From Elusimicrobia bacterium LH_S2 (lineage in GTDB: Bacteria > CG03 > SLGR01 > JAGXOG01): DNA of 63,673 bases. Of the stretch, positions 1 through 49,065 are shown in pieces (within the stretch, counting starts at the first letter, position 1; each line of letters begins with the position of its first letter). A program made the translations under genes and the position numbers. The stretch lies in assembly GCA_023660015.1 (NCBI GenBank), contig JAGXOG010000001.1:1-63673 (forward strand). Reading direction: 5' to 3'. The notes beneath the pieces were generated by a model. The model was not told the DNA's origin and ran no database searches. It saw only the letters and a list, made by a program, of their open reading frames with translations.

Positions 1-3000
1 AAATCTTATTCAGCTACTACTTCAATTACTATTTGGTCACATGATTTTGAAAGTTATGGCGGATATAGTATAAGTACACCGGCTTTTACTGATGGTGAGT
101 GGGATTACTGGGGGCATATGGATAACAACGGGGGGAATCCTGATATATATGATGTTGACGGTAATTTAGTGGGAGACGTTGATGGGGTGACAAATTTAAC
201 TAATATTTTAGGAAATTATTATTTTGGCGGTAACGACATTGATGCTGAAGGAGCTACTCTTCCACTTACACTAACTTTTGACGATGTTGATATTTCCGGA
301 TATGAAAGTTTGGTTTTTAAAGTTTATCTGGCTGATGATGATCCCGCAAATTGGGAGACTGATGATTATGTTCATTTTGATTATGATATTGATAATACAG
401 GAACTTTTTCAGATATGCTTCATCTTGAAGCGGATGGATCGTCATACGCGGCTATAGATACTGATTTTGACGGTACAGGAGATGGGACTGAAGTTACCTC
501 AACATTTGCTCAATCTTCGGCAACAATAAGTGACACCGGCGGATTGATAGATATTAAAATCACATTTGATTTAGATAATGGTGACGATCAAATATATATT
601 GATAGTGTAACTATTGTAGGGCCTCCTGTAACGGATCTCTATCTTCCCGGTGAACACAGTAGTTGGGACCTTGACAGTGTCAATGAGTTTACTGATGATA
701 ATATGCCTGCCGGCTTTATAAAGCATACCTCAACTCCAACCGACCCTCAGGAGTTTAAGATTGTAAAAACGTCCTGGGCTGATACCAATGAATACTCAGC
801 AGGTTACTGGATTGATAAATACGACGAGGTCTGGGATATCCCGAGGAATGACCAGGGGGATACTGGCAATGCTGTATGGAAGGGGGCGGTGCCTCCGCCA
901 AAGTGTGTTACTGTTGTCGCAAAGTCATCAGAGACGCTGACCGGGACAACAGAGAGTTTCGGTTTTATGGGAACGTCTACGGACCCGATATCTATTGCAG
1001 ATGTTTCTGGTGGAACAACTACTGTTGACCCCGACACTTCAGTTGATATTGATATAACACTTTCAGCAGCAAAATGTGCTGAAGAGTATGTTATTGTAAG
1101 GTATACTGCAGATGGTGGGAATAGCTGGGATTTTGTTACAGCAACAGGCACCGCGCTTGATTATACTGCAACAGTTCCCGGACAGTCCGAAGGAGTAACT
1201 GTTCAATGGTATGCGATGACATCCTCGTCTGAGGTGCCGGTGAGTCCTGATTTAATGACTCTTTCCTGTGAGAATAATAACGGAAGCAATTACAGTTATG
1301 ATGTATACAATTTAGGTGATTCCTGGCATGTTCCCGATAATACTGAGCCGGATTCGGTAACAATGCGTAATCCCAAAATCGAAATCTATAACGGGGAGAC
1401 AGTTTATATTTATAACGGCACAAGATTTCAGAATGGCGATAATGATTCTGACCAATCAGGAGGCACTCTTTATTACAAAAAATCAACAGAAGAGACATGG
1501 ATTACATCTGAAATGGACTATGATTCTACCGATGGAGATGTAAAATACTGGAAGACTTCATTTGTAAATAACTATGTTGGCGGTGATGTGGTAGAGTATT
1601 GTCTACGAATTATTTATAGTGACCACGACACAACTTTTCTTTACGGAGATGATGCGAATTCGTATAGAACTGCCTCCACTTCAACAGCACAGGGTTCGCC
1701 ATATACATTTACTGTTAAGAATTCCACTCCGACAGTTCCTGGGCTGACAGCACCGGATGGCGGGGAAATCTGGTATGTCGATAATACTTATTCAATAACC
1801 TGGTCAAGTTCAACGGATGCTGATGGCGAGGATATATCTTATGATATTGATTATTCTTCAAATAATGGTTCAGCTTGGGATGATATAACCACAGTAAATA
1901 TCAGTACTGCAACTTCATATAGCTGGGTAATTCCAAATACAACATCTACTCTTTGTCTTGTCCGAATAAGGGCGTTTGATGTAAATAATAATTATTCTGC
2001 TTTTGACCAGTCCGCTACAACATTTACAATTACAGAGAATGATGCTCCTTCAGTTACTATAGACAGTATTGATGGGACTGCAGATGCGTCACTTACGGGA
2101 ACTTGGCATTCTTCAAATACCACTGTGGGATATACACTTACGGATACAGAATCTGATGATATTTCAATTACTGTTGAATATTCACAGGATGATGTGAGTT
2201 GGTCTTCTGCAACTGAAGGTGTTGGGAGTGACGGCACAGCAGGACTTACATCATCTTCCGGCGGGACAGCACACACTTATGTATGGGCTTCGACAACTGA
2301 CCTTGCCGGGGTAGCGGACTCTACTGTCTATATAAAAATAACCCCGAGCGACGCACAGACAGGAACGTCGGATACTTCATCTGATTTTGGTATTGATAAT
2401 GAGATTCCACCAACTCCGGCGGTTCCGGATGACGGTGTAGTAGCTGAAAGCGGCAATGACTGGACAAACAACAATAATGTTACAATGTACTGGGACGGTA
2501 CAAACAGCTCTACTAAGGCAGCAGATGGAAGTGGCTCGGGAATTCAAAATTATGATTTCTACTGGGATGACGAAACACCGGTTACAGGAACGCAGACATC
2601 ATCAGGACCTGTTGTGATGCCCGATGGCGTTCATACTTTTTATGTAATCACCAGAGACAGTGTGTCAAATATAACATCTGCTCAGTCCCATACTGTTCAG
2701 GTTGATGTGACTGCGCCTGATGCCATAAGTGATTTAACAGCTGATGATGCATCTGATTCACTTGCCGTGAATCTTGACTGGTCTCAACCATCATATTCTG
2801 ATGCCGGAATTGACCACTATAATATATACAGGGATACCAACCCAATATCAACTAATGCTGATAGGGATGTTTTAACACCTATTGATACAGCTGATTTAAC
2901 TTCATATACAGATTCTTCTGTTACAGCCGGCACAACTTATTATTATGTAGTATGTGCGGCTGATTATGCAACAAATCAAGCAGATGTTTCAAATAATCCT

Positions 3001-6000
3001 TCAGTTGTTCCAACTGCGCCTGAGCCTGTATTTTTAGCTACCGGCTACCATTTTGAGGTTTTATTTACAACAGGAAACGATGTTGGATATGAGTCACAGT
3101 TCAATAACCGTTTAATTGACTTGATAAGAAGTGCTCAAAGTTCAATTGATGTTTGTGCTTATGGTATAAATGATGATGATGGAACTGATTCAGTTGATAC
3201 GGCATTGATAGACCAGCACGATGCAGGAATAACAGTTAGAGTTATTGTTGATGATGATCATTCTGACCCAACTGATGGTACCGGCTCACTTGCAGATGCC
3301 GGAATAACAGTAAAACAGGATGCAGATTCAGATGAGATGCACAATAAGTTTGTAATTGTTGATAACCAGTATCTATGGACCGGTTCTGCAAATTTTAATG
3401 ACCCTAATTTTTCTGATTATGATAATAATGCATTTATAATATCAAATTCTTCTATTGCAGCAAACTATAAGGCAGAGTTTGATGAGATGTGGGATGGAAC
3501 ATTTCATGGAGGGACTTCAACAGAAAGTCAATATACAATAGATGGGTGGACCGTTGAAAATTATTATGGTGTTGAGGATGAGCCGGTTGAAGATACTGAT
3601 TCCTATGGCATGAGATACCAGGTTCAAAATGCTCAAGAAAGTGTTTTGTTCGGTATATATACATTTAGTGGAGATTTGGACGATGCATATACAACGCTTG
3701 CCGATGATATGTCTAATGCATGGAACAATGGAAACGGAAAAGTTGTTCAGGGTGTTTTGGATGATTATATAAATTCCGGTTCTGACCCATATTCTGATTT
3801 TGATTCAGATGGGATGAATGTCCGCTTATGGCAGAAAGATGCTTATGATTACATGCACAATAAATATATGATAATTGACCAGGAGAAATTTATTACGGGC
3901 TCAGCAAATTTTACTCATTCGGCAGATGACTACAATGATGAAAACATTATAATTATTCATTCACCTATATTTGCAAGGCAGTTTGTAAGATACCACAATC
4001 ACCTCCACTCACTTACTACAGATGAAGACACAGCAGAGTCGCCGGCACCTGATACTGAAAAGCCCGAGGCAATAACAGGAGTTTCTGCTGCCGGAGGCGG
4101 GCCGGGTACCCTTACGGTTTCCTGGACAGAAGCATCTGGTAAAGATATTGCCGGTGGTGCTGAAACCTTTTCAAGATATTATCTATTCTGCGCAACTACA
4201 TCTTTTGATACTATAGGGCTTTCCGATGGAATTGATAATGATGGTGACGGATGTGCCGATGAAGAGCGTTTAGACGAGACAGATAATGACGGCGATGGTT
4301 CTACGGATGAGGATATAAACATTCTTGCCGCCGATGTTATAACTTCAAGCAGCACCACTGAAGTAGATATCACAGAGGACTCATATAATCAGTCCTTAAA
4401 TGATGATAAAAATTATTATATAGCAGTTGTTATGTCAGATGAATGGGGCAATGAATCAAACATGCAGAGTTATTCTTATTACGGCCCGGTTTCGCCCGGC
4501 GGTGATGCCCAGGATGTAGATGTTACTTCTGTATCAGATGGGACAAATTCGGCTACAATTTTGGATGGTTCCGAGTATTTAAGAGACCTTGATTCAACAG
4601 TAGATTTTACTCTTAATCAGGACCCGGGAGCAAATACACCGGAACTTTATTACGATGATGACGCTGACCCGACGGACGGAACTTCAGATACTGCATCGGG
4701 AAGCGGAACTTCGTGGGAGGCAACAATTTCTGCTGCCGATGCAAATGTAACCGATACCGCCCATATACGTCTGGTAATAAAAATTGGAACAACCTGGTAT
4801 TATAAAACTGGCACCACCCCATGGTCTTATGTAGTTGATGAAGCATCGCCAACAAATGTCGGTTGTTATACTCCGGCTGATAATGCTACCAATCTGGCAA
4901 CTTCTACTGATACTGTTGCCCTTACTGCTTCAGATGCCGGTGCTGGAGGCATTGAGTATTATATACAAATTGCCACTAACATTGGTTTTACTTCAGATCT
5001 TCAATCTTCCGGATGGCAGACTTCAAAAACTTTTTCACCTTCACTTGATACAAATACAACTTATTATTGGCATGTTAAAGCAAGAGATTCGCTGGGTAAT
5101 GAATCAATTTACTGCGGTGATGCAGATTTTGCCGGGTATCACCAGTTCCTTACAGAATTTAACTATACACCGGAACCCGGCGATGTGGTTATAAATGAAG
5201 TTGCATGGGCAGGAACTAATGGAGGCGGTTACAGTGATGAATGGATAGAACTTTACAATAATACTTCTTACGATATCGATCTTGCCGGGTGGGATATACT
5301 TAATAGCAGTTTAGATGCCGACAACCTTGTGAGTAGTATTCCTGCAGAGGGCTATTATCTAATTGAGAATGACGAAGCTGTTGTCGATGATATAACCGGG
5401 GACCTTTTAGATGCTTCCTTAGACCTTGATGATGCTGGGCTGGATTTACAATTGAGAGATGCTTCTGATACTATTATAGATGAGGTTGACAGTTCTTCAG
5501 AATGGTTTGCAGGAGATACCTCAACTCCAACTGCAAGTATGGAAAGGATAAGTCCTCAGGATGATGGTTCTGTCTCCACAAATTGGGATGATGTAGTAAA
5601 TAGCACCCCATTGTGGAATGGACATGATACTGACGGAGGACTGATCTGTGGTACTCCAAAGAATCAGAACACTCAGTACTCGCCTAATAATCCTCCAAAT
5701 GCTCCGACTTTAACTTCGCCGGCAGATGATAGCTGGATAAATGATTTAACCCCAACTTTTGAGTGGAGTTTTTCCGACCCGGATGGAGGTGATTCCCAAT
5801 CGGCTTATAGGATTCAAATAGATAATGATATAAGTTTTGGCAGTGTAGATGAAGATTCTGGTAAGGTCTCTTTATCTTCAGAATCATATACATCTTCAGG
5901 TTTAGATGAGGATTGCTGGTACTGGAAAGTAAAGACATGGGATTCTTATGATGCCGATTCTGTTTATTCTTCAACCTATTCCATAAAGATTGATACCGTA

Positions 6001-9000
6001 CCACCGACAAATGCTTCCGGATTTTCCGGCTCACCTTCTACTAATACATGGAGTGGCTCTTCAAATTTAAATGTAAAATGGATTGCCGGTTCTGATGAGT
6101 TATCAGGACTTTCAGGATATTCTGTAAAATGGGATACTCAGACAGCAACCACTCCTGACGATGCTGTGGATACCACTGATTCAGATACTTCCGATTCAAC
6201 TAAAGATACTTTTACAAGCGACAACTGGTATTTTCATATTGTAGCGGTAGATAATGCCGGGAATGTAAGTGGTGCGGAACATTACGGTCCTTACTGGCTC
6301 GATTATATTAATCCTTCAACTGCAACTTTGACAGCATCGGACGGAACGGGCAACGATGTTGATTTAAGCTGGACTTTTGCCAGTGATACAGATTCGGGGG
6401 TAAGTAAATACAGGTTATACCGGGCTACAAAGACAATAACGGAAAGCAACAAGGATGCTTCCTATGTTACCGAACTTTCTACATTTTCAATCGCAGAGAG
6501 TTCTCATACGGATACAACTACGGTTTCAGGGACAGATTATTATTACTGTTTGGAAATTATAGACAAAGTTGACAATACAAATCTTTCAAATAATGAAAAT
6601 ATACAAGCGGGCTATAATGTTTTGGATGTTTGGCATAAGCCCACTACGCAAGTTCCGGCAAAATCGGTAGATTACAGAAATCCATCGTCGCCGGAGGATA
6701 CAGATTGGGTAGAAATTTGGATAGGAGCAGCCAGCCGGTATGAATTAAGCTATGCTACATTATATTATACCACAAACGATAAAGAACCTGACGAGGATTC
6801 ATCTTCCCGGAATCTTTCCTGGGACCATGATGACAGCGGAAAGTCATTTTTTGTTACTGATTCCAGTATTCCTGCCCAGTCAGACGGCATAACTGTAAAA
6901 TATATGATAAAGTGCGGTACAACTTCGACCACTATGGATGACACATATATCTATTCGGACGGTTCCGGCGGATATGAAAAATACGGTGATATGTCGGGCA
7001 TCCCGTTTTCCTATATCATAGGATGGGGAGTTTCAATAGTAGGGCAATACGACACGGGTGGGACTGAAATTGCTTACGAATCTTGGACAAATTGTACGCG
7101 GCCTGTACTAAAGATTGACCAGACCCCTCCTTCAGTCGGTGTTAATATGTGCTTCCGACTCCAGATTGATGATACCGACAATACTTTTGCCACTCCCGAG
7201 ATGGATATAAAAACGGGATATATAGAAGCCGGAACCGTAACCTATACCGTCGGCCAGGACGCAGATGTTGCGTATCCGACGGCTACCTATAAATCCGGAC
7301 ACGAGGGTATGACCCTTGGAGAAGACGACAGCTATTACTGGCGGGTAATATCTTCCGAAGCGTCTTCGGGTAATTCTTCGCCATGGGTCAAGGCAAACGG
7401 CGGGGACATAGCATTTAAGATAGATATTAATAATCCTTCTAAGCCCACGAATGTAAGTGCGCTTCAAGCTTCAAATAGCTCAGCAGATGTTGACTTAACC
7501 TGGTCAGCAGCAACCGATTCTCAAAGCGGAGTTGCCGGTTATATCATTTATCGTTCAACTTATAGTTTTTCAAATGAAGCAAATGCAACAGAAATAGCAA
7601 GCGATATAACAGGAACTTCATATACTGATTCATCAACTGATCATGATGCCCATTATTACTATTCTGTTAAAGCATATGATAATGCCGGAAATTATGGGTT
7701 ATTATCTACAAATGCCGAGGTTGATACTTCAAAGAAACTGATTGATGGAGATAAAGGCGACTGGACAGGTACTCCATCTGATAAAGTTAATTCTGCTGTT
7801 ATATCAAACGGAGAGTGGATATGGACAGATAAACGGTGGGAAAGGCGAGAGGATTCCCCTGAGAATGACGATGTGGATATTAAGGAACTTAGAATAGATG
7901 CAGATGCTGATAATTTATATTTTTTAGTTGAGTTTGAAAATATTACTGACACTCTCTATCCTAATCTTGCTATAAGTATAGATACAAGCAGAGATGGAAG
8001 TGGGATGGACTGGCTTGGCGATGATTCAGGAGTAACTCTGGGCGATGATTATTATGGATTTCTTGCTAATGGCGAAAGAAATATAGTAGTTCACCACACA
8101 AACGATACACCTGCATGGCAGATAGAATTATATGCTGATGATGGGTCATCATGGTATGCTCCACCTACACTTGGAGCAGGGCGTATAAATTGCAATATAG
8201 TAAATTTTGTTGAGTTTAAAATTACAAAAAGTGATTTGAATATTCCATCGGGAGAGACAACATTCAGAATTACCGCAACCTCTTTTTATCAGGACCAGGA
8301 TGATACCGACGGCAGTGGAGATGGAGACAACAACTGGTGGGCAAATGATGATGATTTAACAGATGATTTAACAGATGATACCACATACGATGCTCTTGAT
8401 TCTATGTCGGTTATTCCGATTTCTACGGGCTCCGGGGCCGGTCAGTATTACAATGACAAAGACCTTACTATGAGTTCCTGGGATGAGGATATCTCCGACG
8501 GGAATATAGATTTCTGGGCGGATATTTACATATCACCTCTATTTGAAATTGAAAACGAACTTCCGGAAGAGGTCGATACCCCCTATCCTCCGGATAAGGG
8601 AGAGGTTAGTAAACCTGCGCCGACTTTAACTTTTGTCTCTAACGGAGACCTTGACGACGAAGTCGGTGACGCCATTACTTCGTACCTGCTTGAGCTTTCT
8701 ACATTTTCAGATGATTTATCAGGTGATGTAACTTACAGGGTCAATCTTGATACCACAAGCTGGCCGGTTCCCGATGATCTTAAACTGGGGGTAAATAATT
8801 ACTGGAGGGTAAGCGCCCGGGACAAAAGGGGAGCTCTGAGCTCTGCTTCCACATGGACTTTTAAGTGCACCGCTGCAAATGATTCGCCCTATGGGCCCGC
8901 AACGGTAGATTTATACGGCTGGGCAACAAGTGATTTTACCGATTCTACCCCTGAAAGTGCGGATGATCTCCAGGCACAGGTTTCGCTGTCCGACCCTGCG

Positions 9001-12000
9001 GATCCTAACAGTGACGACATAAACCGGTATGAATATAAATGGTTTTATAAACCTTCGGGGACAAGCGACTGGCAGTTATTTAAATCGTTCGTTTCATTTG
9101 TTGATACTAATACAATAGATTCTTCTAATACTTCAGAATATGATGAATGGAAAGTATTTGCCAGGGTTGAGGATTCTAACGGCGCATGGGGCAGTTGGAC
9201 TAAATCGGTTGTGCGTACTATAAGACATGTTAACGAAGCGCCGTATGATGTGGGTAGCCTTAAAAATCAGACCGGCTCTCCGACCCCCAGAGATATGAAT
9301 ATTGTAGTTGCGGCTACAAATTTTGACGAGGATAACGACGGTTCCGGCCCCATTGACCCGGACGATGATGGCAGCGCTTCTGATCCTGACGGCACAGTAA
9401 ATTCAGATAATTACTCGGTTAATTTCTATTGGTATAAGAAATCTGAATACAGCGGCACACTTACTCACTATAAGACAGATACTAAACAAATACCGGATTC
9501 TGACCCCGGGGCGGTAGTAACTTCAACTATAACCGCTTCCGAAACTTCACACGGCCAGTACTGGAAAGTGGCGGTCAGGACGGTGGATGAAGACGGTGCT
9601 CAGAGCTCCAGCCCGAATGACGCCGGCCCTTATTATATAAGAACCAGAAATCCTAAAAAGACAAACCGGTCTGATGTAGTAATAAATGAATTATTGTGGA
9701 TGGGAACAACAGATTATGCCGGTCAGGAATCCGTCGATAACCCAACAGACCAGTTTATTGAATTACGGAACCTGGCTGATTTTGATATAGATATAACTAA
9801 CTGGAAAATTAAAAATGGCGCCGGCGCAAGTTCAAACATAGTTATTTCTTCGGGGACCGAGGAGTTTACAATTTCCGCCAACAGTTATTTTCTTATATCA
9901 ACCTACAAAGAAAACGAGTCGAATATTTCGGTAATTCCGGATTATATTACTCCCGTAGATACTGACCACGACAGTGCAATAAGCCTCAATGAATACTATC
10001 ATACTACTGCCGGTTCTACATCTACTGTAAAAGTAGACGGAGCTACGAAATCCAGCAGTAGTGGTGACGAGGTCAATAAGTATTCTCAGGAGAGAGTGAA
10101 ATATTCTACAACTGCTACGGATATATCTTACGATTATTCCGGAGAAGACCCTGACGCTTGGGATATTGCGGTTAATTCGGTGAATTTTGATGACCAAATT
10201 CATGAGAAGGGCACGCCAAAATTTGAAAATTCAGTTTCATCCACTGCTTTCTGGCACGACCCGAATGCGAAAGAACCCTATAGCGACGAATGGATGAGAA
10301 TAGGTAAATCCACTGAGGGTTACTATGCCAATACCAACGACCCGAGAAAAGACGACCTGGTATATTTTTATGTGGGCGGCGACCCGGCAGGGGTCTCAGG
10401 CGGTAAAGATCTATATTATATGGCAAAAAATGAGACCGCGGGTGTATCCTGGTCTGCGCAGGCCTGGATATGGCAGAATAATGAGTTTACTTTCGGCGGT
10501 CATGACTACTTTACAAGAACATCGCAAGCGGGCCTGAGCCACAGTGCAACAGATATTGGAACGGCTGCCGTAAAAGGCAATACAATAGAATACTTCTTTA
10601 AAATAGAAGGGCCGAGCACGACAACTTATTTAGGGGCTACCGGCAGCGTCGTCCCCTCAACTCCGACGGCTAATCCGTTCTCTTATAAAGTGTATAATTC
10701 ACCGCCTGTCGCACCGAATAATCCGATATTCCCATTAAACGGTCAGGTAAACGTATCGACCGGGCCACGGACTCTTCAGGTATACAGAAGCACCGGCTCG
10801 TTATATGAACATTTCATTGACCCGGATGACGGTGATTCCGTCGAGGAAGTTCAGTACCAGCTCTCGTTAGCGTGGGATTTCTCAACTTTTGTAACAAGCG
10901 GCACAATGAGCAATAACGGCAATATATCCGAAGCGGTAGATGTTCCGCTTGAGGCCGGAAATCAGTATTTCTGGCGGGTAAGAGGGCGGAACTCGGTCAG
11001 CGACCCGAATAGTATAAATGATGACGGTTGGGGGCCGTGGTGTAACGGTAATTCTTACTGGACTTTCTCTACTCCCGGCGGCCCGCGGATAGACAATATT
11101 GTATATGATAAAAGACCTACTACCGGAGGCGGTTGGAGCAATATCTCTACGGGCTCTATTGTACTTAATAATGAGCAGGTGAGAGTAAAGGCCTGGGTAT
11201 ATCTGGGCGAAACCGGCGCCGGCGCCGGTAAAACTGCCCTCAGGGCTTATTATACAATCGACGGCTCAAATCCAAATACAAACTATGAAGCCGGCAAAGA
11301 TAACTATTATTTCACGGGTGAGTGGCAAGAAAACGATAACGATGCCTACGGGGTTAGATACTCGTCGTATGTATTGATAATACCCGAAGATGTGCATCCG
11401 GTAGAGTCAGATATAAATATACAGCTTTCTGCTTTTGATGTAGACGGAGATACGATTCCCTCGGCTGTCGTATTTACCTACACTATAGAAAATAAGGAAG
11501 ATAATATACTCTGGAGACCATTAAAACACGACAACACTTATGCCACTAACTCCACCTCAACTGTTAACGGAGCTTCGCATCTGATAAGAGCAATTTATAA
11601 AGACGAGAGCGGTGACAGCGCTTATCTCTATCTTCTGGATGAAAACGGAAAGAATACAGATAACTGGGGAATAAACCCTGCCAATTATCTTATGAACGAC
11701 TCTGATGAGCGCGTGGATGTCTTTGCCGGGGACAGCCCCATACTTTATGTAAGGACGGGATACAAAGATGTTGATAAGGTAGAACTTTACTATAATGACC
11801 AGGACCCGTCGGGGGTCGTCTGGCGCTCTGAAGTTATGATATCTGTAACGGGTTCTTCTGACCCCAGTGATACCGATCTTACCTCTGCAGGTTTTAATAT
11901 CGGCGGTGTGGATGTTGCCGACCCGTATAATACCGATTTTAGTGCTTCCGGCGAGAACCAGGAATACAGGCGATTTAAATTCTATGTGACACCAACACCA

Positions 12001-13314
12001 CCCCCCGACTGGAATAATGGTAAAGCCGCGGATACCGGCAAGATGCTTTATTATTTTAAGATAACAGACGGAGACGACGAAACATATCTCTGTAACGCTC
12101 CGAACAATGACCCGCCGGATGTCGTTAATTCAGAAAGTCGGGCGAGCAATAACCCGTATTCTTACAGAGTGCTTCAGGATGATTATTCAAGACCTTATTT
12201 TTATTATGACGGGAGTCAATACAGCGAGGCCGGCTGGAAACCTGCAAATGCCTGGGCATCTGTTTTGGATAGAGTAACTTATAACGGTTATAAAGAGCGC
12301 CCGGCTGAACCGGACAAGAAAGGCGGCAGTCATTCCATAAGGTCAAATTACAGCGTTTCAGCGCGTATATATGATGATATTGAGGCGTTAAAGACCCATG
12401 AGCAGGGCCAGGAACCGTGGGAGTTTTTAAATGCCGGCAAGAAAGGAGAAGACAGCGGAATATATAAAAACGTCGATGGCTGGACATCTGGGGATTGGGG
12501 AAATACCAAACAAGACGGAAGAAGTAATTCCGGTGTTCACGACACCAGGATATATTTTATCATCTCTACTAAGGCAGCGTCTAATTATACCAAATATAAT
12601 TCTACTATCGCTTATTTTAATCCTCCTGTGAGCAATGTCTGGGACGATATGGATGACGATAGAAAGGATGTGTATATACCCAACGAAGCGACTTTCGATA
12701 AGACAGATTATTGGTATGACGGCTTTGCGGGCTCCAATCCCAAGATATTCGATAAATATGATAAAAAAAGAGACGGCTGGGGATATGTGCCTGTTGACAG
12801 TGTCCCCGCCGGCAGCGGAGGAAACGCTTCATTTACTATACAAAAAGACGCAGGCAGTCCCATAGACGAGGCATATATGAATGAAATTAATAATCTGGCG
12901 GTTGATGATTCTACAAGTCCGTGGAGTAGAAAATATGTCTATTACCGCATATACAGCTGTAATGACGACAGTGACCCGATAAAATATCCTGCTACTTCTT
13001 TAAATTTCGGACTCTTTGTCGGCGATGCGGACGACGGTAGTGATACTAATATTAAAAACCAGCACGGCTCGCCGACGAATCCGCTTTCTGAACCGTTTTC
13101 TGATACTTCAAGGGATATTGACAGAGACCACGGCTGGATGATGAATACCCGCTACGGCGGACTTCTTATGAGACCGCCTATGGTTAAAATTACCGCAACA
13201 GTTACTATAAGCGGAATAACAAAGTCAGTCATAACTTATCTTAAGGTTGACCCATCAACCGGGGAGATAGGCGATGTTATATCCACACATATCGGTCCGG
13301 AGGTCGCCGAATAA
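1..13314 (+). CDS. Giant extracellular/cell-surface mosaic protein, 5'-partial (FN3/Ig-like repeats, double-HKD PLD module, two LTD modules, Asp-rich Ca-binding repeats)
   Basis: Frame 1 has no stop from nt 1 to the TAA at 13312-13314, so the first ATG at 118 is probably internal and the gene runs off the 5' edge. The translation shows repeated FN3-like signatures (..TTYYYVVCAADYATNQ.., ..HYYYSVKAYDNAGNYG..) and Ig-like modules of the P.F.W....Q.AYRIQI type. It also has two HKD motifs, two VVINE..W.ELYN/ELRN LTD signatures and DNDGDG..DNDGDGSTDED repeats. Composition is Thr/Ser/Asp/Asn-rich. Confidence 0.85.
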   Translation, partial: KSYSATTSITIWSHDFESYGGYSISTPAFTDGEWDYWGHMDNNGGNPDIYDVDGNLVGDVDGVTNLTNILGNYYFGGNDIDAEGATLPLTLTFDDVDISGYESLVFKVYLADDDPANWETDDYVHFDYDIDNTGTFSDMLHLEADGSSYAAIDTDFDGTGDGTEVTSTFAQSSATISDTGGLIDIKITFDLDNGDDQIYIDSVTIVGPPVTDLYLPGEHSSWDLDSVNEFTDDNMPAGFIKHTSTPTDPQEFKIVKTSWADTNEYSAGYWIDKYDEVWDIPRNDQGDTGNAVWKGAVPPPKCVTVVAKSSETLTGTTESFGFMGTSTDPISIADVSGGTTTVDPDTSVDIDITLSAAKCAEEYVIVRYTADGGNSWDFVTATGTALDYTATVPGQSEGVTVQWYAMTSSSEVPVSPDLMTLSCENNNGSNYSYDVYNLGDSWHVPDNTEPDSVTMRNPKIEIYNGETVYIYNGTRFQNGDNDSDQSGGTLYYKKSTEETWITSEMDYDSTDGDVKYWKTSFVNNYVGGDVVEYCLRIIYSDHDTTFLYGDDANSYRTASTSTAQGSPYTFTVKNSTPTVPGLTAPDGGEIWYVDNTYSITWSSSTDADGEDISYDIDYSSNNGSAWDDITTVNISTATSYSWVIPNTTSTLCLVRIRAFDVNNNYSAFDQSATTFTITENDAPSVTIDSIDGTADASLTGTWHSSNTTVGYTLTDTESDDISITVEYSQDDVSWSSATEGVGSDGTAGLTSSSGGTAHTYVWASTTDLAGVADSTVYIKITPSDAQTGTSDTSSDFGIDNEIPPTPAVPDDGVVAESGNDWTNNNNVTMYWDGTNSSTKAADGSGSGIQNYDFYWDDETPVTGTQTSSGPVVMPDGVHTFYVITRDSVSNITSAQSHTVQVDVTAPDAISDLTADDASDSLAVNLDWSQPSYSDAGIDHYNIYRDTNPISTNADRDVLTPIDTADLTSYTDSSVTAGTTYYYVVCAADYATNQADVSNNPSVVPTAPEPVFLATGYHFEVLFTTGNDVGYESQFNNRLIDLIRSAQSSIDVCAYGINDDDGTDSVDTALIDQHDAGITVRVIVDDDHSDPTDGTGSLADAGITVKQDADSDEMHNKFVIVDNQYLWTGSANFNDPNFSDYDNNAFIISNSSIAANYKAEFDEMWDGTFHGGTSTESQYTIDGWTVENYYGVEDEPVEDTDSYGMRYQVQNAQESVLFGIYTFSGDLDDAYTTLADDMSNAWNNGNGKVVQGVLDDYINSGSDPYSDFDSDGMNVRLWQKDAYDYMHNKYMIIDQEKFITGSANFTHSADDYNDENIIIIHSPIFARQFVRYHNHLHSLTTDEDTAESPAPDTEKPEAITGVSAAGGGPGTLTVSWTEASGKDIAGGAETFSRYYLFCATTSFDTIGLSDGIDNDGDGCADEERLDETDNDGDGSTDEDINILAADVITSSSTTEVDITEDSYNQSLNDDKNYYIAVVMSDEWGNESNMQSYSYYGPVSPGGDAQDVDVTSVSDGTNSATILDGSEYLRDLDSTVDFTLNQDPGANTPELYYDDDADPTDGTSDTASGSGTSWEATISAADANVTDTAHIRLVIKIGTTWYYKTGTTPWSYVVDEASPTNVGCYTPADNATNLATSTDTVALTASDAGAGGIEYYIQIATNIGFTSDLQSSGWQTSKTFSPSLDTNTTYYWHVKARDSLGNESIYCGDADFAGYHQFLTEFNYTPEPGDVVINEVAWAGTNGGGYSDEWIELYNNTSYDIDLAGWDILNSSLDADNLVSSIPAEGYYLIENDEAVVDDITGDLLDASLDLDDAGLDLQLRDASDTIIDEVDSSSEWFAGDTSTPTASMERISPQDDGSVSTNWDDVVNSTPLWNGHDTDGGLICGTPKNQNTQYSPNNPPNAPTLTSPADDSWINDLTPTFEWSFSDPDGGDSQSAYRIQIDNDISFGSVDEDSGKVSLSSESYTSSGLDEDCWYWKVKTWDSYDADSVYSSTYSIKIDTVPPTNASGFSGSPSTNTWSGSSNLNVKWIAGSDELSGLSGYSVKWDTQTATTPDDAVDTTDSDTSDSTKDTFTSDNWYFHIVAVDNAGNVSGAEHYGPYWLDYINPSTATLTASDGTGNDVDLSWTFASDTDSGVSKYRLYRATKTITESNKDASYVTELSTFSIAESSHTDTTTVSGTDYYYCLEIIDKVDNTNLSNNENIQAGYNVLDVWHKPTTQVPAKSVDYRNPSSPEDTDWVEIWIGAASRYELSYATLYYTTNDKEPDEDSSSRNLSWDHDDSGKSFFVTDSSIPAQSDGITVKYMIKCGTTSTTMDDTYIYSDGSGGYEKYGDMSGIPFSYIIGWGVSIVGQYDTGGTEIAYESWTNCTRPVLKIDQTPPSVGVNMCFRLQIDDTDNTFATPEMDIKTGYIEAGTVTYTVGQDADVAYPTATYKSGHEGMTLGEDDSYYWRVISSEASSGNSSPWVKANGGDIAFKIDINNPSKPTNVSALQASNSSADVDLTWSAATDSQSGVAGYIIYRSTYSFSNEANATEIASDITGTSYTDSSTDHDAHYYYSVKAYDNAGNYGLLSTNAEVDTSKKLIDGDKGDWTGTPSDKVNSAVISNGEWIWTDKRWERREDSPENDDVDIKELRIDADADNLYFLVEFENITDTLYPNLAISIDTSRDGSGMDWLGDDSGVTLGDDYYGFLANGERNIVVHHTNDTPAWQIELYADDGSSWYAPPTLGAGRINCNIVNFVEFKITKSDLNIPSGETTFRITATSFYQDQDDTDGSGDGDNNWWANDDDLTDDLTDDTTYDALDSMSVIPISTGSGAGQYYNDKDLTMSSWDEDISDGNIDFWADIYISPLFEIENELPEEVDTPYPPDKGEVSKPAPTLTFVSNGDLDDEVGDAITSYLLELSTFSDDLSGDVTYRVNLDTTSWPVPDDLKLGVNNYWRVSARDKRGALSSASTWTFKCTAANDSPYGPATVDLYGWATSDFTDSTPESADDLQAQVSLSDPADPNSDDINRYEYKWFYKPSGTSDWQLFKSFVSFVDTNTIDSSNTSEYDEWKVFARVEDSNGAWGSWTKSVVRTIRHVNEAPYDVGSLKNQTGSPTPRDMNIVVAATNFDEDNDGSGPIDPDDDGSASDPDGTVNSDNYSVNFYWYKKSEYSGTLTHYKTDTKQIPDSDPGAVVTSTITASETSHGQYWKVAVRTVDEDGAQSSSPNDAGPYYIRTRNPKKTNRSDVVINELLWMGTTDYAGQESVDNPTDQFIELRNLADFDIDITNWKIKNGAGASSNIVISSGTEEFTISANSYFLISTYKENESNISVIPDYITPVDTDHDSAISLNEYYHTTAGSTSTVKVDGATKSSSSGDEVNKYSQERVKYSTTATDISYDYSGEDPDAWDIAVNSVNFDDQIHEKGTPKFENSVSSTAFWHDPNAKEPYSDEWMRIGKSTEGYYANTNDPRKDDLVYFYVGGDPAGVSGGKDLYYMAKNETAGVSWSAQAWIWQNNEFTFGGHDYFTRTSQAGLSHSATDIGTAAVKGNTIEYFFKIEGPSTTTYLGATGSVVPSTPTANPFSYKVYNSPPVAPNNPIFPLNGQVNVSTGPRTLQVYRSTGSLYEHFIDPDDGDSVEEVQYQLSLAWDFSTFVTSGTMSNNGNISEAVDVPLEAGNQYFWRVRGRNSVSDPNSINDDGWGPWCNGNSYWTFSTPGGPRIDNIVYDKRPTTGGGWSNISTGSIVLNNEQVRVKAWVYLGETGAGAGKTALRAYYTIDGSNPNTNYEAGKDNYYFTGEWQENDNDAYGVRYSSYVLIIPEDVHPVESDINIQLSAFDVDGDTIPSAVVFTYTIENKEDNILWRPLKHDNTYATNSTSTVNGASHLIRAIYKDESGDSAYLYLLDENGKNTDNWGINPANYLMNDSDERVDVFAGDSPILYVRTGYKDVDKVELYYNDQDPSGVVWRSEVMISVTGSSDPSDTDLTSAGFNIGGVDVADPYNTDFSASGENQEYRRFKFYVTPTPPPDWNNGKAADTGKMLYYFKITDGDDETYLCNAPNNDPPDVVNSESRASNNPYSYRVLQDDYSRPYFYYDGSQYSEAGWKPANAWASVLDRVTYNGYKERPAEPDKKGGSHSIRSNYSVSARIYDDIEALKTHEQGQEPWEFLNAGKKGEDSGIYKNVDGWTSGDWGNTKQDGRSNSGVHDTRIYFIISTKAASNYTKYNSTIAYFNPPVSNVWDDMDDDRKDVYIPNEATFDKTDYWYDGFAGSNPKIFDKYDKKRDGWGYVPVDSVPAGSGGNASFTIQKDAGSPIDEAYMNEINNLAVDDSTSPWSRKYVYYRIYSCNDDSDPIKYPATSLNFGLFVGDADDGSDTNIKNQHGSPTNPLSEPFSDTSRDIDRDHGWMMNTRYGGLLMRPPMVKITATVTISGITKSVITYLKVDPSTGEIGDVISTHIGPEVAE
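3043..4010 (+). other. Embedded PLD-superfamily (double HKD) catalytic-type module within the giant protein
   Basis: There are two HxK(x4)D(x6)G[ST]xN motifs. HNKFVIVDNQYLWTGSANFN has its His codon at 3340-3342 and HNKYMIIDQEKFITGSANFT at 3856-3858. Their spacing is typical of a bilobed PLD fold. Confidence 0.75.
5179..5600 (+). other. Lamin-tail-domain (LTD)-like module 1 within the giant protein
   Basis: GDVVINEVAWAGTNGGGYSDEWIELYNNTSYDIDLAGWDI...ASMERISPQ matches the canonical LTD pattern (INE..., EWIELYN, L.GW, ..ER). Confidence 0.65.
9670..10110 (+). other. Lamin-tail-domain (LTD)-like module 2 within the giant protein
   Basis: SDVVINELLWMGTTDYAG...DQFIELRNLADFDIDITNWKI...YSQERVKY shows the same LTD pattern as module 1, with a longer insert. 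Confidence 0.6.
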
Positions 13315-13435
13315 ATGCCGGCTGAGAGATATTTTTTACATTTGCGTTTTGATTTTATATAATTGCTTATATGAGAAAATATCTTCTTCTTTTAATTACA
13401 GCGGTTATGCTTTCTTGGTTAATATTTGAGCGGGT

Positions 13436-13864
13436 ATGTTTGATATAGACCGGGGGAAAGTTAAATCCGGTATCAGGATTAACGGCAATGAGAGAGTGCT
13501 TATAGCCATGACCGACAGCGCGGACACTTATAGTACAAAATACAATGATATAAGCGTGGTATCTTATGCTAACCGTAAAAAGCAGAATGTTAATATCATA
13601 GGTTATGGATACGTCGATGGTGAGATATTGCAGTATATAGCTGACAATACCTTTAACGCAGACGGCAATATAGGGAAATATGAGTATACTTCCACAGGGG
13701 ACGAGCTTTATGTGGCGTACCAAAAGATGGTTCCGGAACCTGATACGGATTATATCAAGATAAGATTCAGAAGTTTAAATGAGAAAGCATCTAAAGCTAC
13801 TGTATATCTTTCCTACGGCAATCTCACCTCTTCTTTTTCCGCAGAATATCCGGATACGGAATGA
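13436..13864 (+). CDS. Hypothetical beta-rich protein (142 aa), possibly the body of a secreted protein whose signal peptide lies in another frame
   Basis: ORF from the track with no recognisable family. A 25-codon signal-peptide-like mini-ORF at 13371-13448 overlaps its start in a different frame (see findings). Confidence 0.45.
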   Translation: MFDIDRGKVKSGIRINGNERVLIAMTDSADTYSTKYNDISVVSYANRKKQNVNIIGYGYVDGEILQYIADNTFNADGNIGKYEYTSTGDELYVAYQKMVPEPDTDYIKIRFRSLNEKASKATVYLSYGNLTSSFSAEYPDTE

Positions 13865-35875: not shown

Positions 35876-37429
35876 ATGAAATATTTTAAAAGATTACTTT
35901 TATTGCTTGGAATTATAGGGATAGCCGCAGGCTCCTATTTATATTACTTTAATAGGAATGTAAGCAGGGTGGATATAATCTATACTTCCGACGGGAATGG
36001 GAATGTTCTGCCTTCTATTGATTACAATAAAGAGGGACACCCTAAGATAGGTGGTCTGGCGGTTCTGGGTGGGTATCTTTCAGAAATCCAGGTTCCTTAT
36101 ATACTTACCGATTCCGGAGATATTTTTCAGGGAACCCCTGAAGGGATTTTAAGTAAAGGAGAGCTACTAATAGATATTATGAATGTTCTGGGTTATAGTG
36201 CAGCGGTAGCCGGGAATCACGATTTCGACCTCGGACAGGAGACTTTAAAAAATTTAGCCGGAAGCGCTAATTTCCCCATATTAGGGGCAAATATATTAAA
36301 AACGGAAACCGGGCTGGTACCCGGATATCTAAATTCCCATGCAACATATAATTTATATAACCTCACTATCGGGCTCATCGGTGTAACTACTGAAAATATG
36401 AAACAGATTTCTTTAAAAGAAAATATTGACGGCCTTGAATTTCCCCCACCGGCTCAGGTAATAGTAAATAGTGTTGAGCAGCTTAAAAATACGGCCGATA
36501 TCATTGTTCTGCTGTCCCACCGCGGGTTAGAAGAAGATAAAGAACTGGCCTCTCGAATTAATGGGGTCGACCTTATACTGGGCGGGCATTCCCATATTCC
36601 TGTCCGGAAGGCAATAATTAAAAATAATATTTTAATTTCCCAGCCGGGCTGCCATTTTAAATATGCTGGTAGGATAGCCCTCTACTACAGCTGGTCGGAA
36701 GATAAAGTCCTGACTTATCGTGAGAGCATGACTCCGCTTTATGTACAGGATTTTAAATCTGATTCTCGGATTAAGAATATTATTAAAACCGGCATGGAAG
36801 ATATCGGTGAAGAGATGACTAAAGTGATAGGTCGTTCAGAGCGTCGGATTTCAAAGAACCTTTCCGGTGAAGAAAGGAAACACGGCGAACTTCCTCTGGG
36901 GAACTGGCAGACTGACTTGATGAGAAAAGAAACTAAAAGTGATTTTGCCTTTCAGAATTCCGGAGGGATAAGGGCCGATATTCCAAAAGGGGATATTACC
37001 GTGCGGAATATATGGAAACTATCCCCTTTTGGAAATACGCTGGTCACCATGAAACTTACCGGCAGGCAGGTAAAAGAGCTTCTTGAGCAGAGTGCAGCAC
37101 ATGATTATTCACGACTTCAGGTTTCAGGCCTTAAAATGATATATAACGATTCAATGCCGAAAGGAAAAAGAGTTCTGAATATAATTATAAAAGATAAAGA
37201 AGGCGAAAAACAGGAGATAGACCCGGAAGAAGAATATAAAGTAGTTACAAATTCTTTCCTTTCCGCTGCAGGCGACGGATATACTCTATTTAATGAAGGC
37301 AGCGATGTAAAAGACAGCTCTCTTCTTTTAAGGGACCTGGAGATTGAATATATAAAAAAGAACTCTCCGATTTCCGCCAAGGGTGAAGGCAGGTTAATTA
37401 ACGTATCCATGGATAAGGAGAATAATTAA
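35876..37429 (+). CDS. Membrane-anchored bifunctional metallophosphatase / 5'-nucleotidase (UshA-like)
   Basis: N-terminal TM helix. Metallophosphatase motifs are DSGDIFQGTPEG, GNHDFDLG and GGHSH. A C-terminal 5'-nucleotidase substrate-binding domain follows. Confidence 0.85.
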   Translation: MKYFKRLLLLLGIIGIAAGSYLYYFNRNVSRVDIIYTSDGNGNVLPSIDYNKEGHPKIGGLAVLGGYLSEIQVPYILTDSGDIFQGTPEGILSKGELLIDIMNVLGYSAAVAGNHDFDLGQETLKNLAGSANFPILGANILKTETGLVPGYLNSHATYNLYNLTIGLIGVTTENMKQISLKENIDGLEFPPPAQVIVNSVEQLKNTADIIVLLSHRGLEEDKELASRINGVDLILGGHSHIPVRKAIIKNNILISQPGCHFKYAGRIALYYSWSEDKVLTYRESMTPLYVQDFKSDSRIKNIIKTGMEDIGEEMTKVIGRSERRISKNLSGEERKHGELPLGNWQTDLMRKETKSDFAFQNSGGIRADIPKGDITVRNIWKLSPFGNTLVTMKLTGRQVKELLEQSAAHDYSRLQVSGLKMIYNDSMPKGKRVLNIIIKDKEGEKQEIDPEEEYKVVTNSFLSAAGDGYTLFNEGSDVKDSSLLLRDLEIEYIKKNSPISAKGEGRLINVSMDKENN

Positions 37430-37806: not shown

Positions 37807-39645
37807 ATGGGAATTGAATTTTATTGTGGTCTATTGGGACTTTTTGCTATACCTTTTATCGCCTGGCTCATCTCATCTAACCGTTCACGAGTAATGTGGA
37901 AAGTAGTTGTCGGGGGCTTGGTACTCCAGCTTATTTTGGGTGTTTTGGTTCTTCTTACCCGGCCCGGGCAGCTGTTTTTTAAAGGAATGAATGATATAGT
38001 CCTGGGATTACTCAAATTTTCCGATAAAGGAGCACAATTTCTTTTCGGTGATCTAATAAATCATGAATTTGCTGCAGCCAACTTTGCTTTTTCCGTGCTT
38101 CCTACAATAATTTTCTTTTCTGCACTTATGTCTATTTTATATTATACCGGATTTATGCAGAAACTTGTTGAATTTGTCGCCTGGCTAATCATGAAAGTCC
38201 TGGGGACCAGCGGAGCAGAAACACTTTCGGTTAGCGCTAATATATTTGTTGGCCAGACAGAAGCGCCCCTGGTTATAAGGCCTTTTGTAAAAGATATGAC
38301 AATGTCGGAATTAAATACGGTAATGACCGGAGGTTTTGCTACCGTAGCAGGGGGAGTTATGGCTGCTTATGTCGGTATGCTTCATTCTTATTTTCCGGCA
38401 ATAGCTGGTCATCTTATTACCGCCAGTATAATGTCTGCGCCGGCCGCTATTGTAATGTCAAAACTTTCTTTTCCCGAGGAGGATGAGCCTGCTACCCGGG
38501 GAACAGTCGAGGTCAATGTAGAAGAGCGAGATCAGAATTTAATAGGAGCTGCCTCCAGCGGAGCGGCCGCCGGACTTAAACTTGCTCTTAACGTCGGCGC
38601 TATGTTGCTTGCATTCATCGCTATAGTTTATATGGCAAATTTTGCTATAAGCTGGGGCGGTCAACAGTTATACAGCCTTATTACAGAAAGAACGGGCTGG
38701 AGCGCATTTTTAAGCGGTGCCATATTAGGCGCGGCCGTGCTTGCTTTTTATATCGCCCGCTGGGGCTGGAAAGGGAGACGGACAAAGTATTGGATAACAG
38801 CGCTTTTATTGGTAATTTTTCTTCCTGTAGCGGCTTATTATATTCTCCCCGACCTTATGGCTGTACGTTTCGGGCTGGGGAGTCCTTCGGTCTGGGCAGC
38901 CGTAGGAATTGCCGGAGGAATTGTATTGGGAGTAGGCGGTATTTTCCGGTGGTTCAGAAAACTTAAAGCACTCTGGCTTCAGTCCCTCGGAGTTTTACTG
39001 CTTGGAGGAGCGGCTGTAGGAATCTTAACCTTTCTTCTCGGCGGAAGCGGATCAGACAGCGGGGCTGCTTTTTTGCTTTTTGGCGTCTTCGGACTTATAG
39101 TCGCCACAGCGGTATATTGGGTCAATCCTTCCCGGGCTACTGTAATTAAGTCCCTAATAATTGTATTTATAGTTGCCGCCGTCGGTGCGTTAATAACAGC
39201 TCTTTTTAATTTAAATATGCTTGTTGCACTGGAGAACCTCACTCTTCAGAAACTTCTGGGGTTTATATTTTCCGGGCTTGCCCTGCTGATAGGAATACCC
39301 TGGCCGGATTTAATTAATGTAGGGCAGCTTATAGGCGAAAAAGTTGCTGTAAATGAATTTGTGGCATTCTTAACTTTCAAGAATATGGCTTCACAGGGTT
39401 TGCTTAGCGCCCGTAGCCTGGTTATTGTTAGTTATGCTTTATGTGGTTTTTCTAATTTCAGCTCAATTGCAATCCAGATAGGCGGTATAGGTGGAATAGC
39501 TCCCAGCCGTTCCGGAGATTTGGCAAAACTGGGTTTGCGTGCGATGACTGCGGGGGTTCTGGCCTCTGCTCAGACGGCGGCGGTCGCCGGTGTAATGTTC
39601 GCTATAGCCGAGAAAATTGGAATACAACTGGTAACCCTGGGATGA
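37807..39645 (+). CDS. nupC: NupC/CNT-family concentrative nucleoside transporter with a large internal multi-TM insertion
   Basis: N-terminal and Gate regions are present, with GQTEAPL.. and ..LNTVMTGGFATVAGGVMAAYVGML. The C-terminal part has NEFVAF.., YALCGFSNFSSIAIQIGGIGGIAPSR. At 612 aa it is much longer than the roughly 400 aa typical of the family. Confidence 0.85.
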   Translation: MGIEFYCGLLGLFAIPFIAWLISSNRSRVMWKVVVGGLVLQLILGVLVLLTRPGQLFFKGMNDIVLGLLKFSDKGAQFLFGDLINHEFAAANFAFSVLPTIIFFSALMSILYYTGFMQKLVEFVAWLIMKVLGTSGAETLSVSANIFVGQTEAPLVIRPFVKDMTMSELNTVMTGGFATVAGGVMAAYVGMLHSYFPAIAGHLITASIMSAPAAIVMSKLSFPEEDEPATRGTVEVNVEERDQNLIGAASSGAAAGLKLALNVGAMLLAFIAIVYMANFAISWGGQQLYSLITERTGWSAFLSGAILGAAVLAFYIARWGWKGRRTKYWITALLLVIFLPVAAYYILPDLMAVRFGLGSPSVWAAVGIAGGIVLGVGGIFRWFRKLKALWLQSLGVLLLGGAAVGILTFLLGGSGSDSGAAFLLFGVFGLIVATAVYWVNPSRATVIKSLIIVFIVAAVGALITALFNLNMLVALENLTLQKLLGFIFSGLALLIGIPWPDLINVGQLIGEKVAVNEFVAFLTFKNMASQGLLSARSLVIVSYALCGFSNFSSIAIQIGGIGGIAPSRSGDLAKLGLRAMTAGVLASAQTAAVAGVMFAIAEKIGIQLVTLG

Positions 39646-49042: not shown

Positions 49043-49065
49043 TTAATAAAAATAAGGAGGAAAAA

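Follow-up and report, generated by a model that had tools for sequence, protein, structure and literature searches.

The first 13.3 kb of contig JAGXOG010000001.1 from Elusimicrobia bacterium LH_S2, an uncultured, Elusimicrobia-labelled bacterium, consist of a single open reading frame (ORF). The stretch analysed here, termed the window in the following, comprises 63,673 nucleotides of this contig (G000:C42:1-63673, where G000 denotes the genome). The best explanation is that the ORF encodes the greater part of a surface protein that is Sec-exported, strongly acidic and built like beads on a string. Its sequence places the protein in a rare family that has not been described before, the hallmark of which is a conserved C-terminal module (about 350-400 residues), and the genes for this module mostly reside next to type IV pilus genes. 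In our estimation, the chances are about evenly balanced that the product is a Sec-exported fibre which either docks to the type IV pilus machine or is exported by it and which presents an HKD phosphodiesterase with nucleases as its nearest relatives. It may represent a new kind of pilus-associated protein. The initial annotation of the window had left the function unknown; what can now be added is the placement in a rare family whose tail tracks type IV pilus clusters.

A rare C-terminal module defines the family

The last ~120 residues of the ORF product and, more weakly, the last ~390 residues are conserved in giant ORFs of two families, f8 and f9, of the same phylum. In an alignment of 13 sequences that includes the ORF of the window, 20 positions are invariant and all 20 are present in the ORF. 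Conserved motifs are Y.VLQDDY[ST]RP, H.T..Y, YLYYRIWACNGD.DPQ, RD.D[YH]GW and V.ITA...KVD, and the family-defining succession Y.VLQDDY[ST]RP ... YYR[IM][WY]..N.D.D ... D.D[YH]GW lies at the extreme C-terminus of the ORF product. None of the Pfam and NCBIfam models matches the module, a search of the PDB with its profile gave no more than a chance-level match, and an AlphaFold model based on the 13 sequences (pLDDT 36) was too poor for fold comparison.

An exhaustive hmmsearch of 1.84 billion protein cluster representatives returned just 28 with the module, all at E<=1e-10. The match ends at most seven residues from the C-terminus in 27 of these 28 representatives and 16 residues short of it in P0022. 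Word-based searches with the module yielded seven and eight relatives, which carry the NCBI names 'lamin tail domain-containing', 'beta-helix repeat-containing' and 'hypothetical'. The module is present in nine of 26 genomes of the phylum and occurs in one copy per genome where this was checked. Complete members comprise 1,430-3,634 amino acids (aa) and start with a type I-like signal peptide, e.g., MKFSKRFWLLIFLTHLLTYSLTHLLHSA in L045. In large members, the signal peptide is directly followed by a pair of phospholipase D (PLD)-type domains, fn3, two to three lamin tail domains (LTDs), Ig_Rha78A_N and finally the C-terminal module, while shorter members (1,300-1,600 aa) contain a beta-helix, one LTD or no annotated cargo. 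Cargo thus varies across the family, from PLD plus LTD to a beta-helix, one LTD or no annotated domain.

Module genes and type IV pilus clusters

Genes for the module were found beside genes for prepilin-type minor pilins and/or directly upstream of pilM(NOPQ) at 12 of 16 informative loci, in two gene orders. At L043/L060, L044, L045 and L059, the giant gene is preceded by N_methyl prepilin genes (three or four), genes of the YfiO/TPR type and a pair of small ORFs, and it is followed by pilM, pilN, pilO, an unassigned ORF at the position of pilP and pilQ encoding an AMIN-domain secretin. In the f8 relatives G015, G017 and G021 from the phylum of the window, the giant gene is directly followed by two N_methyl prepilin genes and then by genes for TPR proteins, with a PilT/PilB-type ATPase encoded nearby. 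The beta-helix subfamily (L047, L048 and L061-L063) has the module gene at the same position in the pilus cluster. The prediction that it is the module and not the cargo that tracks the cluster agrees with the three further short members L061-L063; a prepilin peptidase is encoded nearby at L062 and a T2SSG-type pilin at L061 and L063.

This arrangement resembles that of PilY1/PilC (PF05567). The gene for PilY1 is usually clustered with minor-pilin genes, and the protein itself rests on the complex of minor pilins at the tip of the pilus (PMC7541494). At the family level, both share a type I signal peptide (seen here in the homologues), a variable N-terminal part and a conserved C-terminal module, one copy per genome and a gene position among minor-pilin genes and next to pilMNOPQ (12 homologue loci). 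The members of the new family exceed PilY1/PilC in length by a factor of 1.3 to more than 4 and have an HKD enzyme and LTDs where PilY1/PilC has a vWA domain, and the giant genes in G000 and in the same-genus genome G001 are not located beside pilus genes. The PilY1 beta-propeller (PF05567) found no Pfam match in aa 3961-4437 of the ORF product at E<=1; a search of the 26 genomes with PF05567 also gave no match, but the control genomes stayed silent too. By analogy, the protein would work like PilY1/PilC without being a member of that family. A literature search yielded neither a pilus-cluster protein bearing HKD cargo nor a PilY1-like protein bearing PLD cargo.

Because the organisational logic is PilY1-like in spite of the lack of detectable homology, we infer that the conserved C-terminal module couples the protein to the type IV pilus machine. 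This could occur in two ways: The module may attach to the tip complex of minor pilins in the manner of PilY1, or it may mark the protein as a substrate for export through the PilQ secretin. As the sequence shows, the variable N-terminal part forms a long stalk of beta-sandwich modules, and the pattern of DxDxDG sites suggests that this stalk is probably stiffened by Ca2+. The stalk bears the HKD phosphodiesterase, in which both catalytic motifs are intact, and would present it away from the cell. Its products could feed a 5'-nucleotidase, a nucleoside transporter and the nucleoside catabolism encoded on the same contig.

A different explanation for the same loci is that the protein is a free-standing surface fibre or adhesin whose C-terminal module serves as an outer-membrane or cell-wall anchor. 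Adjacency to pilus genes would then reflect a shared synteny of envelope genes, and the protein would be independent of pili in the genus of the window. G000, G001, G016 and G023, where flanking pilus genes are absent, fit this explanation, as do the beta strands predicted for the end of the module, the acidic composition rich in DxDxDG, FN3 and Ig elements that is typical of adhesins, and the presence of several other giant surface proteins with different C-terminal tails in the genome. Chance synteny, however, poorly explains 12 of 16 loci beside minor pilins or pilM, in two orders and with any cargo. One module copy per genome is unlike a general anchor, and no match was obtained to a known anchor family such as Por_Secre_tail or autotransporters. 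We therefore give a free-standing adhesin a rather low, albeit appreciable, probability.

A released exoenzyme would draw on the very same synteny evidence. Here, the pilus-like machine would be a type II secretion system (T2SS), the module its recognition signal, and the protein would end up free in the medium or in the biofilm matrix. PilY1 itself resembles a T2SS substrate (PMC7541494), and giant proteins of Omnitrophota are encoded beside loci resembling T2SS or type IV pili (10.1101/2023.11.21.568195). On the other hand, PilM/N/O, the AMIN-domain PilQ and the PilT/PilB-type ATPase mark type IVa pili and not GspC/L/M systems, and a conserved, folded module of 350-400 aa would be unusual as a T2SS signal. 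On this evidence, we regard secretion into the medium as unlikely.

A number of points weigh against the coupling of the protein to pili and against its action on nucleic acids. While the genomic pattern appears striking at the level of the family, the link to pili appears weakest in the window's own genus. No pilus genes are present on the visible flanks in G000, G001, G016 and G023, i.e., in four of the 16 loci, and in the genus of the window it is solely the homology of the C-terminal module that would connect the protein with pili. PilM is encoded in all 26 genomes of the phylum and the module in nine, and the co-occurrence of the two is therefore uninformative. Docking would be an analogy, as there is no sequence similarity to PilY1 and the pLDDT of the module model is 36. 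The N-terminus of the ORF product, and hence its signal peptide, is missing from the contig, and the PLD segment of the G001 orthologue is not assembled. Net charges of -47 for the PLD module and -28 for the first LTD contrast with the net positive charge of the neighbouring proteins; acidic domains of this kind would be a poor fit to polyanionic DNA in the absence of bridging cations. Finally, the nucleoside genes lie 22 kb away from the ORF and are not adjacent to it. In a more far-reaching version of the coupling, the module would be a new docking domain without homology to PilY1, mounting giant enzyme fibres on pilus tips as a 'harpoon' of up to ~4,500 aa, which Elusimicrobia and their allies would extend and retract in order to forage on extracellular nucleic acids or to harm cells in the neighbourhood. 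We put this forward as a tentative and, on balance, doubtful proposal.

Pilus genes are present elsewhere in G000. While pilMNOQ reside on C44, prepilin genes were found on C1, C109 and C112. The contigs with the prepilin genes are 1.4-1.7 kb long, and at that size linkage to the giant gene is not visible. In five fragmented metagenome-assembled genomes (MAGs), pilM lies only 20-830 nucleotides (nt) from the start of its contig (G000:C44, G001:C13, G017:C74, G020:C55 and G004:C56), and the sequence ahead of pilM seems to pose a systematic assembly problem in MAGs of this phylum. The sequence upstream of pilM in G000 (G000:C44:1-792) is AT-rich and non-coding. A protein of ~1,035 aa resembling Big_7, AF_1625_C and Por_Secre_tail is encoded directly upstream of the module gene in all three of L061 (3826-6930), L062 (3834-6944) and L063 (3835-6933).

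Downstream of the ORF in the window follow a vWA-remnant ORF and genes for a GT4 glycosyltransferase, a PRK-family kinase, LysM and NlpC/P60 proteins, DprA and TopA. The G001 orthologue is flanked by a small ORF upstream and by genes for a protein resembling outer-membrane proteins and a vWA lipoprotein downstream. At 13371-13864 of the window, a signal-peptide-like mini-ORF (MRKYLLLLITAVMLSW...) is followed by an out-of-frame ORF of 142 aa, which aligns to the C-terminal half of the vWA lipoprotein of 311 aa that G001 encodes, intact, downstream of its orthologue. In G000, this region looks like a truncated and frameshifted remnant from which the vWA part has been lost.

The HKD enzyme module

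The initial annotation had noted a PLD insert and two LTDs, and both were borne out by Pfam. PLDc_2 (PF13091) matched the ORF product in two stretches with 133.4 bits (cut-off 27), placing the module in the PLD superfamily, and LTD (PF00932) reached 60.4 bits for the whole protein (gathering cut-off 34.3). When taken singly, the first LTD copy scored 42.9 bits and the second 33.8 bits, just below the cut-off. The PLD module contains two copies of the motif HxK(x)4D(x)6GSxN, both of which are intact: HNKFVIVD...GSANF at aa 1114 (nt 3340-3363) and HNKYMIID...GSANF at aa 1286 (nt 3856-3879).

Both lobes of the module have the Zucchini/MitoPLD structure 4ggj as their top match in the PDB (8.6e-12 for lobe 1 and 3.1e-6 for lobe 2). 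The second match of each is the Salmonella endonuclease Nuc (1byr; 1.4e-7 for lobe 1), while PLD3 exonuclease, plant PLD and phosphatidylserine (PS) synthase are far weaker matches. A similar picture emerged with NCBIfam, where DrmC and NucT (~58-60 bits) scored above cardiolipin and PS synthases (25-31 bits), and PADLOC called the module DrmC. The nearest relatives by sequence are thus nucleases and not members of the lipid synthase/phospholipase type. Since Zucchini/MitoPLD and Nuc are the top matches of either lobe taken alone, the module looks like a fused pseudo-dimer of the Nuc-type HKD unit. With Nuc, NucT, Zucchini and DrmC it shares the best sequence matches for both lobes and the intact HxKxxxxD...GSxN motifs. 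In contrast, those proteins are single-HKD homodimers, whereas here two lobes are fused within a giant extracellular chain, and the module is strongly acidic (net charge -47).

Enzymes of the Nuc-type HKD branch are metal-independent nucleases, and lipid hydrolase activity has also been reported for Zucchini/MitoPLD. Because the nearest relatives are nucleases, nucleic acid would be the likeliest class of substrate, although we hold this to be close to an even call; a phospholipid or another phosphodiester may also serve as substrate. As weak context, a 5'-nucleotidase (35876-37429), a CNT nucleoside transporter (37807-39645) and a nucleoside-catabolism set are encoded on the same contig, which is consistent with foraging on extracellular DNA.

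The protein could also be a contact weapon, with the HKD module acting as a phospholipase or lytic phosphodiesterase that the fibre or the pilus brings to neighbouring cells, where it damages their membranes. This would correspond to the attack on other cells that the initial annotation had mentioned for proteins of such size in some uncultivated lineages. The superfamily includes phospholipases and lipid activity is on record for the Zucchini/MitoPLD branch, the extreme negative charge disfavours DNA binding, the genome is small (~1.0 Mb at 67% completeness), and a precedent has been proposed for giant genes of Omnitrophota. Nonetheless, the highest scores were obtained with nucleases (Nuc, NucT, DrmC and PLD3 exonuclease), no immunity gene or lysis-related neighbour was seen near the ORF, and there is no sign of an episymbiotic lifestyle, the contig bearing housekeeping genes along with the nucleoside-catabolism set. 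A role as a weapon thus appears highly unlikely.

A domain with 33% identity to the PLD module is encoded at ~48343-49335 of G004:C25, from a genome of the same order, inside an open frame of 13,409 aa. G004 gave no match to the C-terminal module, and this frame represents a different, much larger giant with a related HKD domain.

Integrity of the reading frame

Frame +1 of positions 1-13314 on the forward strand is open for 4,437 codons and ends with a stop codon at 13312-13314. From base composition, ~277 stops would be expected and none is observed (log10 P of none, -124). In the remaining five frames of the same stretch, 184-516 stops each were counted and the longest open stretches comprise 58-190 codons. 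The 5' end of the ORF is missing because the contig end falls there. Its earliest ATG, at nt 118, lies within a domain and, on inspection, is not followed by a hydrophobic segment; therefore, it is not the true start. G000 is a 1.04-Mb MAG of 130 contigs and 66.6% completeness.

The Logan assembly of run SRR14170927 contains a contig that begins 1 nt from the window start and is identical to the window across the 14,464 bases compared. An exact-match look-up of the ORF product retrieved nothing, that of a neighbouring gene the Logan contig only, and a homology search with the whole protein gave just three weak matches, each at the level of a single domain. No direct DNA repeat of at least 30 nt was found within the ORF, so an internal repeat collapse, an artefact against which the initial annotation had cautioned, is unlikely. 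No tRNA or Rfam features were found in the window.

The single uninterrupted frame that the initial annotation had described is confirmed as a genuine gene: it is free of stops over 13.3 kb, the second assembly is identical, and a collinear, stop-free orthologue exists in another species. A pseudogene or a chimeric assembly could be argued for on the grounds that the contig end cuts the gene, with both assemblies breaking at the same base, and that the MAG is fragmented. Given the lack of stops and of internal repeats of at least 30 nt, together with the second assembly and the orthologue, this is extremely unlikely.

Orthologue in the same genus and length of the protein

G001 (JAQICQ01, Elusimicrobia bacterium GH52) carries the orthologue spread over three short contigs, with 57-71% identity over aa 629-1027 and 1365-4437. 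G001:C55 matches aa 629-1027 (66-71% identity), G001:C230 matches aa 1365-2351 (69% identity) and G001:C215 matches aa 2351-4437 (57-61% identity). G001:C55 includes the true start of the orthologue, an ATG followed by MNRIIKKVGKLIIPVPILVCKAAKPLLFGIVLSLILIMAFSQKVKA, a segment resembling a signal peptide or transmembrane (TM) helix. This start lies ~780 aa ahead of the collinear part, which implies a full length near 4,550 aa. No counterpart of aa 1-628 of the window's ORF was found in G001, and the N-terminal region therefore varies between species. The full-length protein of the window probably has ~4,500-5,000 aa.

None of the contig ends of G000 overlaps the window start, and the first 20-mer of the window is unique in the genome. 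Neither the first 400 nt (blastn) nor the first 210 aa (tblastn) of the window gave a significant match elsewhere in G000, and no counterpart of the N-terminal region of the G001 orthologue or of the 70-aa ORF upstream of it was found there. This small ORF (L018, G001:C55, 91-303; ~70 aa, MKKGKYATVKCSSFKEMERASV...) overlaps the start codon of the orthologue via ATGA, which suggests translational coupling.

Domain anatomy of the ORF product

The features of the ORF are collected in Table 1. Consistent with the earlier description as a giant, 5'-truncated mosaic of extracellular type, the ORF runs off the contig end, and its product is made up of domains detected with Pfam and of modules detected with profiles. 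Asp and Glu account for 16.4% and Lys and Arg for 5.3% of the residues, resulting in a net charge of about -492, which speaks against simple binding to DNA; the pooled neighbouring proteins are net positive. Many FN3/Ig-like modules had been predicted and are indeed present. At least ten of ~95 aa as well as four copies of a ~150-aa module were detected with self-built profiles, which were made from the protein's own copies, so that those used in building match by construction. Independent evidence for FN3 comes from a weak Pfam match and from PDB sequence matches, and Ig_Rha78A_N scored 44 bits in Pfam.

Table 1 Features of the giant ORF with their positions in the window
Feature	Position (nt)	Strand	Remarks
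5'-truncated ORF	1..13314	+	4,437 codons + stop
Variable N-terminal region, aa 1-440	1..1320	+	acidic, beta-rich; no family assigned; absent from G001 orthologue
~150-aa repeated module, copy 1 (W-H.P ... YY.T.DG ... PFSY.V)	1318..1767	+	self-built profile; faint Fn3_assoc/CHB_HEX_C motif
~150-aa repeated module, three more copies	6625-7047, 10246-10746, 11128-11616	+	self-built profile
Two FN3 modules, aa 813-1003, immediately ahead of PLD module	2437..3009	+	
Two-lobed PLD-superfamily (HKD) module, aa 1028-1350	3082..4050	+	
FN3 with Asp-rich insert bearing two DNDGDGxxDEx motifs (nt 4234-4317)	4072..4485	+	
Lamin tail domain 1, aa ~1722-1835, net charge -28	5164..5505	+	Pfam
Three FN3/Ig modules, aa 1893-2202, the first of Ig_Rha78A_N type	5677..6606	+	
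FN3 (aa 2476-2575), conserved ~275-aa beta-sandwich module, FN3 (aa 2850-2956)	7426..8868	+	
Lamin tail domain 2, aa ~3218-3330	9652..9990	+	Pfam, borderline alone
Family-defining C-terminal module, aa 4047-4437	12139..13311	+	no Pfam, NCBIfam or PDB match by sequence

The Asp-rich repeats announced for nt 4225-4315 were located as DNDGDGCADEE and DNDGDGSTDED at aa 1412-1439 (nt 4234-4317) in the FN3 insert. Four more DxDxDG sites occur in the protein; as a pattern only, they suggest Ca2+ binding. For aa 1-440, a weak match to CBM_56 (E 0.029) was the only one obtained. The stretch aa 211-722 resembles pieces in G023, G021 and G024. Module order differs among the relatives, and the term mosaic, chosen in the initial annotation, is therefore apt: G023:C121 has the same blocks in another order.

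One of the earlier claims was not supported. The stretch GDKGDWTG...NLYFLVEF is present at the position given by the initial annotation, which had taken it for part of a glucodextranase-C-like beta module (block aa ~2576-2850). Glucodextran_C (PF09985) gave no match to the ORF at E<=1, although the same search detected a gene on C64 of G000 with 90.8 bits, and BLASTP of the block against this genuine family member returned nothing. When the family profile of the block was compared with the PDB, titin-type FN3 alone was matched, in the last ~90 residues of the block. The structure model of the block is moderate (pLDDT 59, pTM 0.67), and the top 50 Foldseek matches to it comprised generic FN3/cohesin sandwiches at TM-scores of ~0.2 and no glucodextranase. 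Pfam, BLASTP, PDB profile and Foldseek thus all fail to support such a module. The whole FN3-beta-sandwich-FN3 unit is shared with G001, G023, G016, L044 and a giant protein encoded on C97, which has two copies. The genuine Glucodextran_C domain on C64 (G000:C64:32796-33404, reverse strand; 90.8 bits) is part of a 477-aa protein unrelated to the giant ORF.

Comparison with other secreted giants and nucleases

Shewanella ExeM consists of 871 aa, contains an EEP nuclease domain and OB folds, and the role of its LTD is unresolved (PMC6085458). Like ExeM/NucH, the protein of the window would be secreted and combines LTDs with a catalytic domain of the phosphoesterase/nuclease type (PMC6085458). 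It differs in using an HKD module and in being at least five times longer, and EEP/NucH models of Pfam and NCBIfam did not match the ORF.

Very large secreted mosaic proteins, encoded beside genes for type II/type IV filament secretion, have been described in Omnitrophota, which are likewise uncultivated bacteria with small genomes (10.1101/2023.11.21.568195). They belong to another phylum and differ in size and domain set, and the text of that paper is without nuclease or lamin domains (10.1101/2023.11.21.568195). By description only, they offer a loose parallel.

With classical giant adhesins, i.e., RTX proteins secreted by type I systems (T1SS) such as LapA and SiiE and the cargo of type IX systems (T9SS), the protein shares a repetitive Ig/FN3-like stalk, acidic Ca-binding motifs and a presumed extracellular location. 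Neither RTX repeats with a T1SS signal nor Por_Secre_tail were found in the ORF with Pfam or NCBIfam. In contrast to T9SS cargo, its C-terminal module is of a different, uncatalogued kind, while other giants of G000 do end in T9SS-like tails.

Other giant genes in G000 and its relatives

Four further giants are encoded in G000: on C43 (1899-12188, reverse strand; 3,430 aa), C97 (29731-39972, forward strand; 3,414 aa), C75 (34037-40444, forward strand; 2,136 aa) and C11 (3-4466, forward strand; >1,488 aa). Three of the four end in T9SS/FlgD-like tails (...GVYLYLV...). It is the C97 protein that contains two copies of the ~290-aa beta-sandwich plus FN3 block of the ORF.

In addition, frames with FN3 arrays run off contigs C40 (13778-20245, reverse strand; 2,156 aa), C57 (whole contig; 1,967 aa) and C70 (whole contig; 1,413 aa). 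The C40 frame includes an N-terminus with a TM segment, and the last 700 aa of C57 and the first 700 aa of C70 share 54% identity. C40, C57 and C70 together may constitute another gene of at least 5,500 aa. These arrays resemble one another and not the ORF of the window or C11, and no link to the ORF was found. The idea of one gene of ~10,000 aa that joins the ORF to the arrays was dropped, because no such link was found and because the G001 orthologue starts just ~780 aa before the collinear part.

The whole 4.5-kb contig G023:C121 (L021) is a frame of 1,508 aa that is open at both ends. A block resembling aa 222-722 of the ORF product comes first, followed by the aa 2488-2954 block and then by FN3 and PLD. 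The first block is 57% identical to the ORF although the genome stems from a different family, a pattern that suggests module shuffling or transfer between giant genes.

Implications for type IV pili and giant genes

Few surface machines of bacteria are as widespread as type IV pili, and what a pilus binds is believed to be set by its tip. To our knowledge, PilY1/PilC is the only well-studied non-pilin protein of the pilus tip. The family described here occupies the same genomic position as PilY1 and combines a conserved tail with swappable cargo, including an intact HKD enzyme on a stalk that is thousands of residues long. Should the link to pili fail, an ordinary, though very large, surface mosaic protein would remain. 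Should it hold, a second, unrelated tip family would widen the roles of the pilus from adhesion, motility and DNA uptake to the presentation of enzymes at a distance, and an enzyme-bearing harpoon at the pilus tip would be new among the known functions of tip proteins. Giant genes in small-genome bacteria that have not been cultivated are usually left as 'function unknown'; for one class of them, a concrete and testable role would then be at hand.

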